64,000 nt of DNA, from the IMG/VR virus record IMGVR_UViG_2541047759_000001. One strand, written 5' to 3'. Shown one piece after another: positions 4,132-42,392 of this stretch; position 1 is the stretch's first letter, and each line of letters begins with the position of its first letter. Below the pieces are notes generated by a model. That model had not been told where the DNA came from. It ran no database searches and saw only the letters and a program-made list of their open reading frames with translations. The DNA is from a virus. Lineage: Duplodnaviria > Heunggongvirae > Uroviricota > Caudoviricetes. The translations under genes and the position numbers were made by a program.

Positions 4132-4884
4132 TGTGCACATCCTTTTGGCATCAGACGTAAACGGGCCAGCATTGAAACAATGCATACTTTATTTAATAAC
4201 TCCCGTTCGTGTTTTCTTTTGTTAATGGCATCTTCAGTAAATACAGGATTACTGATAGTGACACCAATTTCAAAACAACCTTCAGACGTATTAACGTTTG
4301 GTAATAACGTTTTCATTATCGCGCCCTCAACAATGAGTTTTGTGATGCGGTGCCTGGTGCCTCCAGGTGACGTTAACCAGTTAACAATTAACGCCGGATA
4401 CAGAGAATCCACCCATAACACTGTTTTTGGTTTTAACTGTTCCGCGTGCGCTTAGCCGCATTCACCGCATCACAAAATTCACTTTAAAAAGGGCGGCAGA
4501 GCAGTCACGGAGTAAAACTGATACCGCCAAACGTCACCAGAAAATTGATAACAGAGGGCGTTGCAGTGGGGTTGTCACTTAAGCGTATGGTCAACCTGAC
4601 AACCCGGTGTCCTCAACGGGGGAAGGAATAACCCCGCCATACTTACCGCCGCGCCATTTCGCGGATTGCCACAACCGGAAGCGCACGGTCGACGAAAATT
4701 TAACGACAGGCTATCTATGAACCAGCTACCTCGCCGTGCGCTTTCGCGTTATGGTCTGACTTTTCAGGGAAATATCCTTTCAGTAAACTGTCAGTGCCGG
4801 ATGCTCACCCGTGTCCGGCGCACGCACTCCACCTCACCCGTGGAGAACTCCTTAATTACCAACCTTAGCTTCGTTGGTTATCTA

Positions 4885-10219: not shown

Positions 10220-10498
10220 ATACAGCGAACGCCATTGGTTTAGTTGGATATTTACTGTGCCGGACAAAAACGGTTTGCGGGGAAATCTTAGTTAAGTAGA
10301 ATGACTGCGGGTGCTTGAGGCTATCTGTCTCAGGCATGAACACCAAAAGGCAGATAGAGAAAAGCCCCAGTTAACATTACGCGTCCTGCAAGACGCTTAA
10401 CATTAATCTGAGGCCATATCTATGCGACACATAGAGATTAGCCTCTTACGGACCGAAAGGTCAAGGAGAAGCAGGCTATGAAGCAGCAAAAGGCGATG

Positions 10499-35187: not shown

Positions 35188-35513
35188 AAACCTTTCGCTG
35201 GAAAGTGAAGCCGGATATGGAGGTGAACTCGCAGCCATCGGTGCGTGAAGTGCGTTTTGGTGACGGGTACTCACAGCGTATGGCGGCAGGGCTGAATGCT
35301 GACCTGAAAACATACAGGGTGACGCTTTCCGTGACCCGGGAGGAGGCCCGGCATCTGGAAGCGTTCCTGGCAGAGCACGGGGGCTGGAAGGCATTTTTGT
35401 GGAAGCCACCCTATGCATACCGGCAGATAAAGGTGACCTGTGCCGGGTGGTCTGCGCGGGTCGGGATGTTGCGCGTTGAGTTCAGCGCGGAGTTTAAGCA
35501 GGTGGTGAACTGA
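35184..35513 (+). CDS. M: Tail tip protein M
   Basis: 109 aa, lambda M position. Confidence 0.8.
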   Translation: MKTFRWKVKPDMEVNSQPSVREVRFGDGYSQRMAAGLNADLKTYRVTLSVTREEARHLEAFLAEHGGWKAFLWKPPYAYRQIKVTCAGWSARVGMLRVEFSAEFKQVVN

Positions 35514-36211
35514 TGCAGGATATTCACGAAGAAAGTCTGAACGAGTCGGTTAAATCAGAGCAGTCACCGCGGGTGGTACTCTGGGAAATCGACCTGACGG
35601 TACAGGGCGGTGAGCGGTATTTTTTCTGTAATGAGCTGAATGAAAAAGGGGAGCCGGTCACCTGGCAGGGGCGTAAGTATGAGGCATACCCGATTGACGG
35701 CAGCGGCTTTGAGATGAACGGCCGGGGCAGCAGTGCCCGCCCGTCGCTGACGGTGTCCAATCTGTTTGGCCTTGTCACCGGGGTGGCGGAGGACCTGCAG
35801 AGTCTGGTGGGGGCCACGGTGGTCCGCCGCCGGGTGTATGCCCGTTTTCTGGATGCGGTGAATTTCGTTGCGGGCAATCCGGCGGCGGACCCGGAGCAGG
35901 AGTTGAGTGACCGCTGGGTGGTGGAGCAGATGTCGCAGCTGACAGCCATGACGGCCTCGTTTGTGCTGGCCACACCGACCGAGACGGACGGGGCGCTGTT
36001 TCCCGGTCGTATCATGCTGGCGAACACCTGTATGTGGACCTACCGCTCTGATGAGTGTGGTTACACGGGCGAGGCTGTGGCGGATGAGTTCGATAAACCC
36101 ACCACGGATATCCGTAAGGACAGATGCAGCAAGTGCATGCGCGGGTGTGAACTGCGCAGGAATGTCGGCAATTTTGGCGGTTTCCTTTCCATTAATAAAC
36201 TTTCGCAGTAA
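35513..36211 (+). CDS. L: Tail tip protein L
   Basis: 232 aa with C-terminal Cys cluster, lambda L-like. Confidence 0.8.
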   Translation: MQDIHEESLNESVKSEQSPRVVLWEIDLTVQGGERYFFCNELNEKGEPVTWQGRKYEAYPIDGSGFEMNGRGSSARPSLTVSNLFGLVTGVAEDLQSLVGATVVRRRVYARFLDAVNFVAGNPAADPEQELSDRWVVEQMSQLTAMTASFVLATPTETDGALFPGRIMLANTCMWTYRSDECGYTGEAVADEFDKPTTDIRKDRCSKCMRGCELRRNVGNFGGFLSINKLSQ

Positions 36212-36221
36212 ATCCCGGTTT

Positions 36222-36965
36222 ATGACACAGACTGAATCAGCGATTCTGGCGCATGCCCGGCGGTGTGCGCCTGCGGAGGCGTGCGGCTTCGTGATAAGCA
36301 CGCCGGAGGGGGAGTGGTATATCCCTTGTGTGAATATTTCTGCAGAGCCGGAGGCGTATTTTCGTATCGCACCGGAAGACTGGCTGCGGGCAGAGATGCA
36401 GGGGGAGATTGTGGCGCTGGTCCACAGTCATCCCGGTGGTCTGCCCTGGCTGAGCGAGGCGGACCGGCGGCTGCAGATAAAGAGCGCACTGCCCTGGTGG
36501 CTGGTCTGCCGGGGGGCGATTCATAAGTTCCGCTGTGTGCCGCATCTCACCGGGCGGCGCTTTGAGCACGGGGTGACGGACTGTTACACGCTGTTCCGGG
36601 ACGCTTACCATCTGGCGGGGACTGAGATGCCGGACTTTCATCGTGAGGATGACTGGTGGCGTAACGGCCAGAATCTCTATCTTGATAATCTGGAGGCCAC
36701 AGGGCTGTATCAGGTGCCGTTGTCAGCGGCGCAGCCGGGCGATGTGCTGCTGTGCTGTTTTGGTTCATCGGTGCCGAACCATGCCGCCATTTACTGCGGC
36801 AACGGTGAGCTGCTTCACCATCTGCCTGAACAACTGAGTAAACGGGAGAGGTATTCCGAAAAATGGCAACGACGAACGCATTCTGTCTGGCGTCACCGCC
36901 ACTGGCACGCATCTGCCTTCACGGGGATTTGCAACGATTTGGCCGCCGCCTCAGCCTGTATGTGA
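36222..36965 (+). CDS. K: Tail tip assembly protein K (JAB/NlpC-P60-like)
   Basis: ATG at 36222 in frame with the long ORF 35961..36965; HSHPGG motif. Confidence 0.8.
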   Translation: MTQTESAILAHARRCAPAEACGFVISTPEGEWYIPCVNISAEPEAYFRIAPEDWLRAEMQGEIVALVHSHPGGLPWLSEADRRLQIKSALPWWLVCRGAIHKFRCVPHLTGRRFEHGVTDCYTLFRDAYHLAGTEMPDFHREDDWWRNGQNLYLDNLEATGLYQVPLSAAQPGDVLLCCFGSSVPNHAAIYCGNGELLHHLPEQLSKRERYSEKWQRRTHSVWRHRHWHASAFTGICNDLAAASACM

Positions 36966-37543
36966 ACACGGCAGCGGAAGCCATCCGTGCCCTGTCGTTA
37001 CAGGTGCCGGGCTTTCGCCGTCAGATGAACGAAGGCTGGTACCAGATACGTATTGCCGGTGATGACACGGCACCGGAGGCGGTGTACGCCCGTCTTCACG
37101 AACAGCTGGGTGAGGGAACGGTCATCCACATTGTGCCGCGACTGGCCGGAGCCGGAAAGGGCGGACTGCAGATTGTGCTGGGGGCGGCAGCCATCGTGGG
37201 CTCTTTCTTCACGGCCGGTGCCTCGATGGCGTTATGGGGTTCAGCCCTGGCAGCCGGTGGTTTTTCTGCCACCACGATGCTGTTTTCACTGGGGGCCAGC
37301 ATGATACTGGGCGGTGTGGCACAGATGCTGGCCCCGAAGGCAAAAACACCGGATTACCGCGTAACGGATAACGGCAGACAGAACACGTACTTTTCCTCGC
37401 TGGATAACATGATTGCCCAGGGGAACCCGATGCCGGTGCCTTACGGGGAAATGCTGGTTGGCTCCCGCCGTATATCCCAGGACATCAGCACCCGTGATGA
37501 AGGCGGGGGCGGAAAGGTCGTGGTTATCGGGCGGCAGGGGTAA
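36863..37543 (+). CDS. I: Tail assembly protein I
   Basis: ...ARICL.GDLQRFGRR..L.V.T.AEAIRAL..Q.P.FR... matches lambda I. Confidence 0.85.
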   Translation: MATTNAFCLASPPLARICLHGDLQRFGRRLSLYVNTAAEAIRALSLQVPGFRRQMNEGWYQIRIAGDDTAPEAVYARLHEQLGEGTVIHIVPRLAGAGKGGLQIVLGAAAIVGSFFTAGASMALWGSALAAGGFSATTMLFSLGASMILGGVAQMLAPKAKTPDYRVTDNGRQNTYFSSLDNMIAQGNPMPVPYGEMLVGSRRISQDISTRDEGGGGKVVVIGRQG

Positions 37544-37881
37544 AAAGAATAAAAAAATCCCGCAGAGTTGCGGAGCTGCGGGAGCGTTACGAAGATCAAC
37601 TATAGATAATTATTCTTATGTCACGACAAAAAAAATTAACGCAGAGAAATTATAAGTGCCACAGGGATTTTGTGAAAATGTGAAGATATTCAGAATTTTT
37701 ATGCCATTACCGGTTTTAACCAACAGGATTATCGGTGGGCATGAAAGAAAACCCCGGTATCTGCTGATACCGGGGTTTCTCTTTAGCATGGCAGAAATGT
37801 GTTTCATGCTTTTCGGGCGAAGGATATCCGACTTCTGTACGGAATGGCAAGTGGCGGTTAATTTATTCAGGGGAAGGCTGT

Positions 37882-40800
37882 ATGGGAAAAGGTGGCGGTA
37901 AGGCACACACGCCTCGTGAGGCGAAGGATAATCTCAAATCCACGCAGATGATGAGTGTGATTGATGCGATTGGTGAGGGACCGATAGAAGGTCCGGTGAA
38001 GGGACTGCAGAGTATCCTGGTGAACAAAACCCCGCTGACGGACACGGACGGTAATCCCGTGATACACGGTGTGACCGCGGTCTGGCGTGCCGGGGAGCAG
38101 GAGCAGACACCACCGGAAGGCTTTGAGTCCTCCGGAGCTGAAACCGGACTGGGCGTGGAAGTGACGAAGGCAAAACCGGTGACGCGCACCATTACGTCCG
38201 CGAACATTGACCGCCTGCGGGTTACCTTCGGGGTGCAGTCACTGGTGCAGACCACGTCAAGGGGCGACCGTAATCCTTCCTCTGTCCGGATTCTGATTCA
38301 GTTACAGCGTAATGGCCGCTGGGTGACGGAAAAGGACGTCACCATTAACGGCAAGACCACCTCACAGTTCCTGGCCTCGGTGATTCTGGATAATCTGCCT
38401 CCCCGGCCCTTTAACATCCGGATGGTCAGGGAGACGGCGGACAGCACCACGGACCAGCTGCAGAATAAGACGCTGTGGTCGTCATACACCGAAATCATCG
38501 ATGTGAAACAGTGCTACCCGAACACGGCCATTGTGGGGCTGCAGGTGGATGCGGAGCAGTTCGGCGGCCAGCAGATGACGGTGAACTACCATATCCGCGG
38601 TCGCATCATCCAGGTGCCGTCAAACTATGACCCGGAAAAACGCACGTACAGTGGTATCTGGGACGGCAGTCTGAAACCGGCATACAGCAACAACCCGGCC
38701 TGGTGCCTGTGGGACATGCTGACTCACCCGCGCTACGGCATGGGAAAACGTCTGGGGGCGGCGGATGTGGACAAGTGGGCGCTGTATGCCATCGGGCAGT
38801 ACTGCGACCAGACGGTCCCGGATGGTTTCGGGGGGACCGAGCCGCGGATGACCTTTAATGCGTACCTGGCACAACAGCGTAAGGCGTGGGACGTTCTCAG
38901 TGATTTCTGCTCTGCGATGCGCTGTATGCCGGTATGGAACGGTCAGACGCTGACGTTCGTTCAGGACCGCCCGTCGGATGTGGTGTGGCCGTACACCAAC
39001 AGCGATGTGGTGGTGGATGATAACGGCGTGGGGTTCCGCTACAGCTTCAGTGCCCTGAAGGACCGGCACACGGCGGTGGAGGTGAATTACACCGACCCGC
39101 AGAACGGCTGGCAGACCTCCACGGAACTGGTGGAAGACCCGGAAGCCATACTGCGCTACGGACGCAACCTGCTGAAGATGGACGCGTTCGGCTGTACCAG
39201 CCGCGGTCAGGCCCACCGTGCCGGGCTGTGGGTGATAAAGACCGAACTGCTGGAAACGCAGACGGTGGATTTCACGCTCGGGTCACAGGGGCTGCGTCAC
39301 ACACCCGGTGACATCATTGAAATCTGTGATAACGACTATGCCGGAACCATGACCGGCGGACGTGTCCTGTCCATCGATGCCGCCAGCCGTACCCTGACGC
39401 TGGACCGGGAGGTGACACTGCCGGAGACCGGCACGGCCACTGTTAATCTGATTAACGGCAGCGGTAAGCCGGCGAGCGTGGCCATCACCGCACACCCCGC
39501 GCCTGACCGGATACAGGTCAGCACCCTGCCGGATGGTGTGGAGACATACGGTGTGTGGGGACTCTCCCTGCCGTCACTGCGCCGTCGCCTGTTCCGCTGT
39601 GTCTCCATCCGGGAAAACACGGACGGCACCTTTGCCATCACGGCGGTGCAGCACGTACCGGAAAAAGAAGCCATCGTGGATAACGGTGCCCGCTTTGAGC
39701 CGCAGTCAGGCTCCCTGAACAGCGTCATCCCACCGGCAGTACAGCACCTGACGGTGGAGGTGAGCGCAGCTGACGGCCAGTATCTGGCGCAGGCTAAATG
39801 GGACACGCCGCGGGTGGTGAAGGGCGTGCGCTTCAGTCTGCGCCTGACCAGTGGTAAGGGAACGGATGCCAGACTGGTGACCACCGCCATCACCGCAGAC
39901 ACGGAGCACCGTTTCAGTGGCCTGCCACTGGGGGAATACACCCTGACGGTGCGGGCGATAAACAGTTATGGCCAGCAGGGTGAACCTGCCACCACCACCT
40001 TCCGGATTAACGCACCTGCAAAACCCGCCACCATTGAGCTGACGCCGGGGTATTTTCAGATAACGGCGGTCCCGCGTCTTGCGGTGTATGATCCGACGAT
40101 ACAGTTTGAATTCTGGTTCTCAGAAAAACGCATCACGAACACGGCACAGGTGGAAAAATCTGCCCGTTATCTGGGGTCCGGCAGTCAGTGGACTGTCCAG
40201 GGGAGCCGGATTAAGCCGGGGACGGATTTCTGGTTTTACGTGCGAAGCGTCAACCTGGTGGGAAAATCTGCTTTTGTGGAAGCCAGCGGGCAGCCCAGCA
40301 ATGATGGTGAAGGGTATCTGGAAATTTTCCGGGGGCTGATAGATGAGACGCTTCTGGGTCAGGCACTGAAAGAGCGCATTGATGCTTCAGCGCTGCGTAC
40401 GGAGGTCACGCAACTGGAAGAAGACATCCGTCAGCGGATGGACACGGATATCGCAGAAGTGACCCGGAAAATCGGGGAGGCGGAAAACAGCCTCACGCAG
40501 CTGGTTGCGAAAAAGAATGAGGACCAGACACTGGCCATCGCGCAGATGAGCCAGAAAGTGGACCGGGTTAGCAGTGAAATCTCACAGACTGTCAGCCAGG
40601 GGCAGTCAGAAAACGCCCGACAGATAGCACAGGTCCGCCAGTACGTGGATAAAAAAGGGAGTGAAATTACCTCGACCACGGATAAAAAACTGGGTGACCA
40701 GGCCGTGACCATACAGCAAATCCAGCGGGTTCAGTCAGACACGCGCAATGAGCTGAATGCCATGTATATGCTGAAGGTGCAGAAAACAAAAAACGGTATT

Positions 40801-41574
40801 CCCTATGTGGCCGGGATTGGCGTGGGGATTGAGGATGTTGATGGTCAGACCCTGAGTAACATTCTGCTGCAGGCTGACCGTATCGCGATGATTACCCCGG
40901 AGAATGGCAACACCACGCCGCTGTTTGTGGCGCAGGGGAATCAGCTGTTCATGAACGACGTGTTCCTGAAGCGACTGTTTGCGGTGAGCATCACGTCATC
41001 CGGCAATCCTCCGACGTTTTCCCTGACGCCGGATGGCAGGCTGACAGCCCGCAATGCGGATATCAGTGGAGCCATCACGGCGAATACCGGCACGCTCAAT
41101 AATGTCACCATTAACGAGAACTGTGTCATCAGAGGGAAACTGTCTGCAAACCAGATTGAAGGCGATCTCGTTAAAACAGTGGGTAAGGCTTTCCCCCGTG
41201 ACTCCCGTGCACCGAAGCGTTGGCCATCAGGAACCATTACCGTCAGGGTTTATGACGATCAGCCGTTTAACCGGCAGATTGTTATTCCGGCGGTGGCTTT
41301 CAGCGGTGCCAGACATGAGCGGGAGAACAGCGATACTTATTCGTCATGCCGCCTGATAGTGAAGAAAAACGGTGCTGAAATTTATAACCGTACCGCGATG
41401 GATAATACGCTGGTTTACAGTGGTGTTATTGATATGCCTGCTGGTCGCGGCCACATGACGCTGGAGTTTTCTGTATCAGCATGGTGGGTAAATGGCTGGT
41501 ATCCCACAGCAAGTATCAGCGATTTGCTGGTTGTTGTGATGAAGAAAGCCACTGCAGGCATCACGATTAGCTGA
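37882..41574 (+). CDS. J: Central tail fiber / host specificity protein J
   Basis: 1230 aa, N-terminal region lambda J-like. Confidence 0.9.
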
Positions 41575-41641: not shown

Positions 41642-42241
41642 ATGCGTAAATTATGTGCTGTTATTCTGTCCGCAGTAGTCTGGCTGGTTGCCGCTGGTAC
41701 GCCAGCGAGCGCAGCAGAGCATCAGTCCACACTAAGCGCCGGGTATCTTCAGACCCATACTGATATGCCTGGCAGCGATGATCTGAACGGGATTAACGTG
41801 AAATACCGTTATGAGTTTACGGACACGCTGGGGCTGGTGACGTCATTCAGTTATGCCAATGCCAAAGATGAGCAAAAAACGCATTACAGCGATACCCGCT
41901 GGCATGAAGATTCCGTGCGTAACCGCTGGTTCAGCGTAATGGCGGGGCCGTCTGTGCGCGTGAATGAATGGTTCAGTGCTTATGCGATGGCAGGTGTGGC
42001 TTACAGCCGTGTGTCGACTTTCTCCGGGGATTATCTCCGCGTAACTGACAACAAGGGGAAAATGCACGACGTGCTGACCGGAAGTGATGACGGTCGCCAC
42101 AGCAATACCTCTCTGGCGTGGGGAGCTGGCGTGCAGTTTAACCCGACCGAATCCGTGGCCATTGATATTGCTTATGAAGGCTCCGGCAGTGGCGACTGGC
42201 GAACGGATGCATTTATTGTTGGTATCGGATACCGTTTCTGA
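41642..42241 (+). CDS. lom: Outer membrane protein Lom (Ail/Lom family)
   Basis: Signal peptide plus beta-barrel pattern ending ...IGYRF, lambda Lom-like. Confidence 0.85.
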   Translation: MRKLCAVILSAVVWLVAAGTPASAAEHQSTLSAGYLQTHTDMPGSDDLNGINVKYRYEFTDTLGLVTSFSYANAKDEQKTHYSDTRWHEDSVRNRWFSVMAGPSVRVNEWFSAYAMAGVAYSRVSTFSGDYLRVTDNKGKMHDVLTGSDDGRHSNTSLAWGAGVQFNPTESVAIDIAYEGSGSGDWRTDAFIVGIGYRF

Positions 42242-42347: not shown

Positions 42348-42378
42348 GCCCGTGGCGTCACTGCTGCGGGCTTTTTTT
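42348..42378 (+). terminator. Intrinsic terminator after lom
   Basis: gcccgtggcgtcactgctgcgggc followed by ttttttt. Confidence 0.5.
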
Positions 42379-42392
42379 ATTGGTGGAAAAGT

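Follow-up and report, generated by a model that had tools for sequence, protein, structure and literature searches.

Why do tail genes I and J stand 338 bp apart in a lambda-like operon, and what does the DNA between them encode? The question arises in a 64,000-nt stretch of a Caudoviricetes virus (IMG/VR record IMGVR_UViG_2541047759_000001; this whole stretch is hereafter the window), where the I-J gap occupies positions 37544-37881. In phage lambda, the corresponding gap measures 60 bp (15445-15504) and carries its own hairpin followed by a U-tract. An earlier note on the window, made from its letters, described an insert of ~340 bp with two strong hairpins, and this is borne out, with a length of 338 bp and structures above chance; its premise that lambda has essentially no gap between the two genes is only roughly right, given the 60-bp gap and its hairpin. 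Folding of the spacer on the plus strand gives z=-4.2, with 0/100 shuffles equally stable. Over its entire length the spacer is 100% identical to Escherichia coli ABU 83972 (NC_017631.1 1210405-1210742), in which RefSeq leaves it unannotated between a "tail assembly protein" and gpJ.

Taken as a whole, the spacer is probably best explained as two independent modules: a left one holding a small-RNA gene (37551-37702) and a right one containing the second hairpin (37703-37881). We consider it likely, with the same confidence, that a known prophage small RNA dependent on Hfq, present as a rare divergent allele, accounts for much of the spacer together with a lambda-like junction hairpin.

A predicted member of the PasB and EcOnc22-24 small-RNA family

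The left half is, as judged from its sequence, a divergent member of the PasB/EcOnc22-24 prophage small-RNA family. A covariance model, built from nine PasB-type (type-A) alleles and Sakai EcOnc22 with all window-type sequences excluded, matches 37642..37551 on the minus strand over the full model length with 57.4 bits (E~1e-11). This match at 37551-37642(-) is the sole significant one in the 64 kb, the next being the lom terminator with E about 1. Together with the promoter and terminator described below, the model defines a pasB-family gene at 37551-37642 (minus strand) with a predicted primary transcript of ~92 nt. A small-RNA gene was among the readings that the earlier note had proposed for the spacer; this holds for the left half, with the gene on the minus strand, opposite the tail genes, and hairpin 1 as its terminator rather than a structure of the tail mRNA.

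PasB is one of five prophage small RNAs identified by Hfq RIL-seq, in which interacting RNAs are ligated and sequenced, in enteropathogenic E. coli (EPEC) O127:H6 E2348/69 (Pearl Mizrahi et al. 2021, PMC8550237). The RNA is 83 nt long, northern-validated and strongly reduced without hfq (log2 -6.8), with 37 RIL-seq partners (PMC8550237). Its gene, NC_011601.1 1466343-1466261 on the minus strand (coordinates and northern probe from PMC8550237 Table S6), lies between E2348C_1436 and E2348C_1437, which are I and J, and the probe AATCCCGCAGTGATCGCGGAGCT corresponds to the window terminator AATCCCGCAGAGTTGCGGAGCT. The two genes share the I-J site of a lambdoid prophage, an orientation antisense to the tail genes, a terminator abutting the I stop, a homologous promoter (-10 TATAAT, -35 TTCACA) and a homologous terminator stem with U7, and the E2348/69 spacer aligns with that of the window. 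They differ in the RNA itself, which is ~72% identical and has UUAUCUAUAG where the PasB central segment has CUCCUU, and in the right-hand module, which is unrelated (179 bp with hairpin 2 in the window versus ~75 bp beside PasB). The window allele occurs in 34 genomes versus 956 for the PasB-type, and megablast makes no link between them.

EcOnc22, EcOnc23 and EcOnc24 are Hfq crosslinking and analysis of cDNA (CRAC) peaks in prophages Sp15, Sp14 and Sp11 of enterohaemorrhagic E. coli (EHEC) O157:H7 Sakai (Tree et al. 2014, PMC4104026, Table S2). On a northern blot EcOnc22 measures ~85 nt, and it is destabilised without hfq (PMC4104026). The EcOnc coordinates come from an older genome version, and a +128 shift was calibrated on HnrS (EcOnc10), reported to measure 66 nt and to carry an intrinsic terminator; the three peaks stand at an equal offset from their J genes, which favours a single coordinate shift. 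Each of the three maps to the I-J spacer of its prophage (Sp15, Sp14 and Sp11), on the strand opposite the tail genes, and after the shift the EcOnc22 peak lies exactly on the pasB-like body, ending at the terminator. Strand, terminator and layout are those of the window, whose RNA is ~75% identical and whose spacer aligns with that of Sp15; the differences are a partly diverged promoter region and the short right-hand module alongside. PasB (EPEC, 2021) and EcOnc22-24 (EHEC, 2014) appear to us to be one family at one I-J site, an equivalence that we did not find stated in the literature.

No Rfam family matches the spacer at E<=1, and a permissive scan of 36500-39000 returned chance snoRNA-like matches inside J only. 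Two other identities were rejected: HnrS/EcOnc10-12, which maps between the lysis and terminase genes, and svsR, a prophage small RNA of strain NC101, which maps to the 3' end of cI. By analogy with its homologues, the window allele would be expressed and Hfq-dependent. The earlier note had proposed comparing I-J junctions across relatives and had named a conserved untranscribed linker as the counter-case; the same spacer is indeed present in relatives, but its homologues are transcribed, as seen by northern blot, Hfq CRAC and RIL-seq.

Architecture of the minus-strand gene

The predicted sigma-70 promoter (37649-37676, minus strand) comprises a -35 element TTCACA (37676-37671), a 16-nt spacer and a -10 element TATAAT (37654-37649), matching 11/12 consensus positions in the promoter scan. 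Transcription is predicted to start at G37642; a 5' end equivalent to that reported for PasB in EPEC would lie near 37628, giving an RNA of ~78 nt. Promoter and terminator follow each other in the correct order on the minus strand, and the predicted RNA, which contains no plausible open reading frame (ORF), ends 8 nt from the I stop codon.

Hairpin 1 with U7 (37551-37583, minus strand), detected by a terminator scan and as an inverted repeat, consists of a stem at 37583-37576/37565-37558 and a U-run at 37557-37551. Its arms (37558-37565 and 37576-37583) form 8 bp with 100% complementarity around a 10-nt loop, at the position that the earlier note had given (~37558-37583). By its composition, hairpin 1 with U7 is the predicted Rho-independent terminator of the small RNA and its presumed Hfq-binding 3' module. 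Hfq-dependent small RNAs are reported (Otaka 2011; Ishikawa 2012) to carry a Rho-independent hairpin and, directly after it, some 7 or more U residues; the window RNA has an 8-bp terminator stem followed by U7. Folded alone, the small RNA reaches z=-1.85 only. The terminator stem CCCGCAG/CUGCGGG and U7 are invariant in 38 alleles, so that the RNA's own terminator stem gives no covariation signal across them. An apparent lom terminator (42364-42381, plus strand), just after lom, has CTGCGGGATTTTTTTATT in common with the pasB terminator.

Upstream of the promoter lies a conserved block, GTGAAAATGTGAAGATATTCAGAATTTTTAT (37672-37702, no strand assigned), with an exact 24-mer in >120 IMG/VR contigs and a diversity of ~0.016. 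This block forms the junction of the small-RNA module with alternative right-hand modules, the long and short versions of which diverge immediately beyond it, and it is probably a recombination linker and/or a regulatory site. Inspection of the block by eye for CRP-like or Fur-like sites found nothing convincing.

A 14-of-17 A-rich direct repeat, AAAAAAATCCCGCAGAG/AAAAAATTAACGCAGAG, occupies 37551-37567 and 37630-37646, exactly at the 3' and 5' ends of the small-RNA gene. The 5' end of the small RNA, GCGUUAAUUUUUUUU, therefore resembles the descending half of its own terminator, a resemblance kept in all alleles. The repeat could be a trace of the gene's origin or a low-complexity effect.

Allelic diversity and distribution

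Searching with an exact 24-nt word from the promoter region retrieved >120 IMG/VR contigs with 38 distinct promoter-to-terminator sequences. Conserved across these alleles are the promoter (-10 and -35, also in E2348/69), a 5' GCGUUA-U-run, AUCUUC, the terminator stem and U7. The variable RNA body falls into three types: A, B and the window allele. Type A comprises PasB and "PasB-2", which differ at position 27; this difference matches the description of Zhu et al. (Zhu, Shabalina & Storz 2026, bioRxiv 10.64898/2026.05.13.724894) and thereby confirms the alignment register. Type B is the commonest in IMG/VR. In its 5' part the window allele is of type B, with UUAUCUAUAG in place of the CUCCUU/UUCCUU segment, and its RNA is 72% identical to PasB, 75% to EcOnc22 and 82% to type B. 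Within the central segment AUCUUC is retained and CUCCUU is replaced; the PasB seed is itself only predicted (Zhu et al.).

Among 5,426 complete E. coli genomes, type A is present in 956, type B in 800 and the window allele in 34, including ABU 83972, a strain of asymptomatic bacteriuria. Megablast connects none of the three body types. A published PasB census reports 1,158 hits with "only a few nucleotide differences" (Zhu, Shabalina & Storz 2026); these few differences, set beside types that megablast leaves unlinked, suggest that the census probably covers type A only. Across 61 haplotypes, nucleotide diversity is maximal in the RNA body, at 0.16-0.21, with ~0.06 at the I 3' end and 0.030 at the J 5' end.

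The pasB promoter is present in the spacer of all 73 resolved close IMG/VR relatives of the I gene; lambda-type I genes are followed by a 58-60-bp spacer without pasB. Among 185,579 species-representative genomes the promoter word has a single match, on a 460-bp contig (NZ_FWPT01000051.1) in an assembly of the sponge symbiont Parendozoicomonas haliclonae, which is almost certainly E. coli prophage contamination. With this sole match a probable contaminant, the element looks confined to E. coli and Shigella, which fits the published finding that PasB is limited to Escherichia and Shigella.

The right-hand module and hairpin 2

Beyond ~37702 the spacers split into two unrelated sequences: a ~75-bp short module in E2348/69, Sakai and many others, and a 179-bp long module. 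In the window, the near-invariant long module (37703-37881, no strand assigned) stands in place of the short module of E2348/69 and Sakai. Within it, hairpin 2 (37749-37778, no strand assigned) pairs arms 37749-37761 and 37766-37778 in a 13-bp perfect stem with a 4-nt loop; the earlier note had rightly recognised it, at ~37744-37772, about 6 nt too low. An A-tract before and a T-rich tract after the stem give it the look of an intrinsic terminator on both strands. The stem is followed by UUUCUCUUU on the plus strand and UUUUCUUUC on the minus strand; a terminator scan that strictly required 5 or more T among 8 positions did not call it. Over 100 shuffles of the window the expected count of its 28-nt palindrome is 0.00, and the 77 nt around the hairpin on the minus strand fold with z=-6.7.

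Hairpins of unrelated sequence recur at this junction. In every variant of the short module, a plus-strand hairpin CAGGCAYCC..GGRTGCCTGTTGTTTTT is followed by TTGTTTTT; its stem is 98.9% paired over nine variants and includes one compensatory pair (CG, UG, UA). At the equivalent place, the lambda I-J spacer and 80 lambda-type IMG/VR loci carry the hairpin AAACCGCC-N4-GGCGGTTTTGTC. The lambda hairpin (NC_001416 about 15466-15490) resembles hairpin 2 in its GC-rich stem, in the U-tract that comes after it on the late-operon strand and in its place downstream of the I stop and ahead of the J ribosome-binding site. The two differ in sequence, which is unrelated, in polarity, the lambda hairpin being terminator-like on one strand and hairpin 2 on both, and in distance from J, 24 nt versus 103 nt. 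Counting those of lambda and the short module, hairpin 2 is thus the third unrelated sequence to place a hairpin and U-tract after I and ahead of the J ribosome-binding site. No published function for the lambda I-J hairpin was found, and a literature search on a lambda I-J terminator returned nothing relevant. We regard hairpin 2 as a candidate insulator overridden by the antiterminator Q, or possibly an mRNA-stabilising element. In lambda-type loci (L128 946-1005; also L209-L288), a 17-codon mini-ORF runs across the I-J hairpin in most variants and ends 3 nt before the J start.

The long module is present in 1,446/5,426 (27%) complete E. coli genomes, always between I and J, and is at least 99% identical in 1,442/1,451 E. 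coli records. Thirteen phage records, all 100% identical, are the only phage occurrences, and divergent relatives were found neither in E. coli nor in the phage collection. Its nucleotide diversity (pi) is 0.0045, versus 0.030 at the J 5' end and 0.152 in the RNA body, and 37740-37899 is essentially fixed. Variants other than a 47-bp deletion and an inserted insertion sequence, both considered below, are one stem mutation and 1-nt deletions. This invariance reflects either a young module spread by recombination via its conserved flanks or constraint at the nucleotide level, of which a second minus-strand RNA would be one possible source. The sequence on either side is more diverged, by 15-20% in the adjacent small-RNA body and by 3% at the J 5' end.

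The I-J junction as a moron slot

The I-J junction is a moron slot, which accepts extra genes oriented against the late operon. Morons of lambdoid phages were reportedly described by Juhala et al. in 2000. The window gene is like them in being an autonomous promoter-gene-terminator unit between two late genes, expected to be active in a repressed prophage. It also resembles the small-RNA morons AgvB/AsxR (Tree et al. 2014), whose alleles likewise have conserved ends and a variable segment; those genes, however, lie downstream of PR' rather than at I-J, and the window gene varies in the middle of the RNA, not at the 5' end, and is not known to have anti-sRNA activity.

A few IMG/VR relatives carry a minus-strand sodC between pasB and J, and the junction is therefore a multi-cargo slot. 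In relatives L136 (2422-2949, minus strand), L137, L165, L169 and L193, in which the I protein is 99% identical, sodC lies antisense between pasB and J, encodes a 175-aa Cu,Zn superoxide dismutase (phrog_1975, E=1e-85) and has its own hairpin, terminator-like on both strands. In the L165 type, other sequence occupies the place of the pasB promoter. A further IMG/VR relative, L018, has an insertion sequence near window-equivalent 37730, between the pasB promoter and hairpin 2.

Proposed mechanism

From the homology, anatomy and distribution observed here, we infer expression at this locus, targets and a role for hairpin 2 as follows. Host sigma-70 RNA polymerase would start at the near-consensus promoter and transcribe toward gene I, against the late operon, until stopped at hairpin 1 and U7, yielding a 78-92-nt RNA with a 3' hairpin and poly-U. 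By homology, lysogens should produce this RNA, Hfq should stabilise it, and it should act on host and prophage mRNAs by base-pairing. Its central segment lacks CUCCUU/UUCCUU, and its targets are therefore probably different from those of the characterised alleles. The RNA is also fully complementary to the late mRNA where this spans I-J, and head-on late transcription through its promoter should silence or absorb it in lytic growth.

Lambda Q-modified polymerase reads through intrinsic terminators. Hairpin 2 would most likely stop polymerase lacking the Q modification before it enters J, with Q-modified polymerase reading through; as built in the window allele, it would in addition stop antisense transcription arriving from J.

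Alternative explanations

Several observations weigh against the two-module reading. The window RNA is ~72-75% identical to the validated RNAs and diverges exactly in the likeliest seed part, and its predicted start lies ~15 nt upstream of the PasB 5' end reported from read coverage. The mapping of EcOnc22-24 depends on an inferred coordinate shift between genome versions, and the PasB family has no Rfam model. For hairpin 2 or its analogues in any phage, a measurement of terminator activity was not found in the literature; the promoter scan found no plus-strand promoter needing hairpin 2; and two contigs have lost the hairpin by a 47-bp deletion, given which it may be dispensable.

Hairpin 2 and the invariant module could instead form a second, undescribed minus-strand small-RNA gene of ~75 nt, terminated by hairpin 2 and UUUUCUUUC, convergent with the late operon and arranged tandemly with pasB, which we consider unlikely. 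The candidate transcription unit (37738-37850, minus strand) would be read from a promoter-like site TTGCCA-18-TATCCT (37850-37821), scoring 9/12, with a start near 37814. The 77-nt stretch with z=-6.7 provides a 5' hairpin (37810-37785), a single-stranded UAAAGAGA and a terminator, the minus-strand U-tract at hairpin 2 is usable, unlike those of the lambda and short-module analogues, and the module varies far less than the coding sequence beside it (pi 0.0045 versus 0.030). The promoter is nevertheless weak, within the range of shuffled sequence, and the U-tract is interrupted; near-invariance is equally explained by a young recombination-spread module, and hairpin 2 is deleted in two contigs. 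A wider proposal, which we find doubtful, treats the PasB family as a swappable-body cassette, with at least three deeply diverged bodies on one chassis and different targets, and has the long module encode a second antisense small RNA or a selected bidirectional insulator. The small-RNA body is the most variable stretch of the tail region, and its promoter and terminator are conserved.

The spacer might also act as a plus-strand attenuator of J, in which hairpin 2 partly terminates transcription or stabilises the upstream tail mRNA, resulting in less J than upstream proteins, and short ORFs across the hairpin might couple translation to read-through. A hairpin with a plus-strand U-tract does stand upstream of J in lambda and in both short and long modules, and in lambda and in short-module variants an ATG mini-ORF spans the hairpin, with its end at the J ribosome-binding site or close to it. 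We hold this to be improbable: Q-modified polymerase passes intrinsic terminators, the mini-ORFs lack a Shine-Dalgarno sequence, have chance lengths and are lost in 7/80 lambda-type loci, and in the window the hairpin is 103 nt from the J start, with the left half of the spacer unexplained. The attenuator that the earlier note had suggested, or a terminator, is a candidate reading of hairpin 2 only; plus-strand hairpins of this kind with a U-tract recur in unrelated sequence at the junction, lambda included.

It is very improbable that the insert is a scar or copy of a transposable element, such as a miniature inverted-repeat transposable element, a repetitive extragenic palindrome-like element or an insertion-sequence remnant. 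The spacer is ~280 bp longer than that of lambda, and the site accepts insertions, namely an insertion sequence in one relative and sodC in others. Neither the window nor the rest of the E. coli genomes has a second copy, however; the genomes hold the element at a median of one place each, always I-J. No terminal inverted repeats were found, direct repeats stay at chance level except for the 14-of-17 A-rich repeat at the RNA-gene ends, no target-site duplications above chance level were found at the spacer, and the insert contains an entire unit of promoter, RNA and terminator. The mobile-insertion scar of the earlier note fails on these grounds, yet the junction does behave as a moron slot. 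Apparent second copies, two places per record, were the palindrome matching itself. A relic I/J duplication was rejected as the origin of the long module, since direct-repeat echoes of the I 3' end and J 5' end are near chance by estimate and not collinear, as was a 12-nt match to 21863-21874, which lies beside the cos site, not at a gene start, with E about 1.

The weak 81-codon ORF mentioned in the earlier note as lacking a good ribosome-binding site does exist (37656-37901, plus strand; GTG start, or 66 codons from ATG 37701), overlaps the J start, contains hairpin 2 and is judged non-coding. It has neither a Pfam or PHROG match nor a Shine-Dalgarno sequence, and tblastn found 13 identical phage copies only, with no divergent homologue. 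Its frame is broken by 1-nt deletions and by the 47-bp deletion, and its GTG start is lost in other alleles. The 66-codon frame and a 96-codon minus-strand frame were likewise rejected, since neither Pfam nor PHROG matches them and tblastn gives no divergent homologue, as were the mini-ORFs joining the hairpin to J in lambda and the short module, which have chance lengths and no Shine-Dalgarno sequence and are lost in some lambda-type variants. That either the 81-codon or the 96-codon ORF encodes a small protein deserves almost no credence: both exist, the plus-strand one lies almost wholly inside the invariant module and one phage record annotates a "hypothetical protein" there, but they have no family, divergent homologue or Shine-Dalgarno sequence, a 13-bp GC-rich hairpin sits inside the plus-strand ORF, frame-breaking variants are known, the GTG start and upstream codons are not conserved, RefSeq annotates none and a frame of such length is within chance over six frames.

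Significance and genomic context

The content of the spacer is mostly of known kinds, a prophage small RNA and a junction hairpin, neither of which is in RefSeq or Rfam. The family looks broader than its published distribution, with allele differences falling where the seed would lie, and an unannotated, monomorphic 179-bp element with a strong hairpin stands upstream of J in more than a quarter of E. coli genomes. Prophage-made small RNAs can rewire host regulation. No major concept is altered, and allele-specific targets in uropathogenic and commensal lineages are worth examining.

The spacer is embedded in a tail region that includes L (35513-36211) and K (36219-36965), both assigned by Pfam, and I (36863-37543, plus strand; Lambda_tail_I, E=5.7e-16), with its stop codon at 37541-37543. 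Downstream, the J ribosome-binding site GGGGAAGG (37870-37877, plus strand), read from the sequence, precedes the tail-tip gene J (37882-41574, plus strand), which has the full gpJ set of seven Pfam domains and is followed by Lom (41642-42241, Pfam). In ABU 83972, locus tags jump from ECABU_RS06005 to ECABU_RS06015, omitting RS06010 exactly at the I-J spacer, which suggests that a gene was once annotated there and later withdrawn.

Elsewhere in the window, gathering-level Rfam matches comprise DicF (4491-4542, minus strand), sok of the hok/sok module (10309-10480, plus strand), STnc100 (14425-14614, plus strand), which is reported as related to PasD, and two tRNAs (13476-13548 and 13652-13725, both plus strand). 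DicF, sok and STnc100 thus bring the small-RNA genes of the prophage to at least four. A lambda-type cos site, GGGCGGCGACCTCGCGGGTTTTCGCTATT, lies at about 21905-21935, where the packaging/late region begins.

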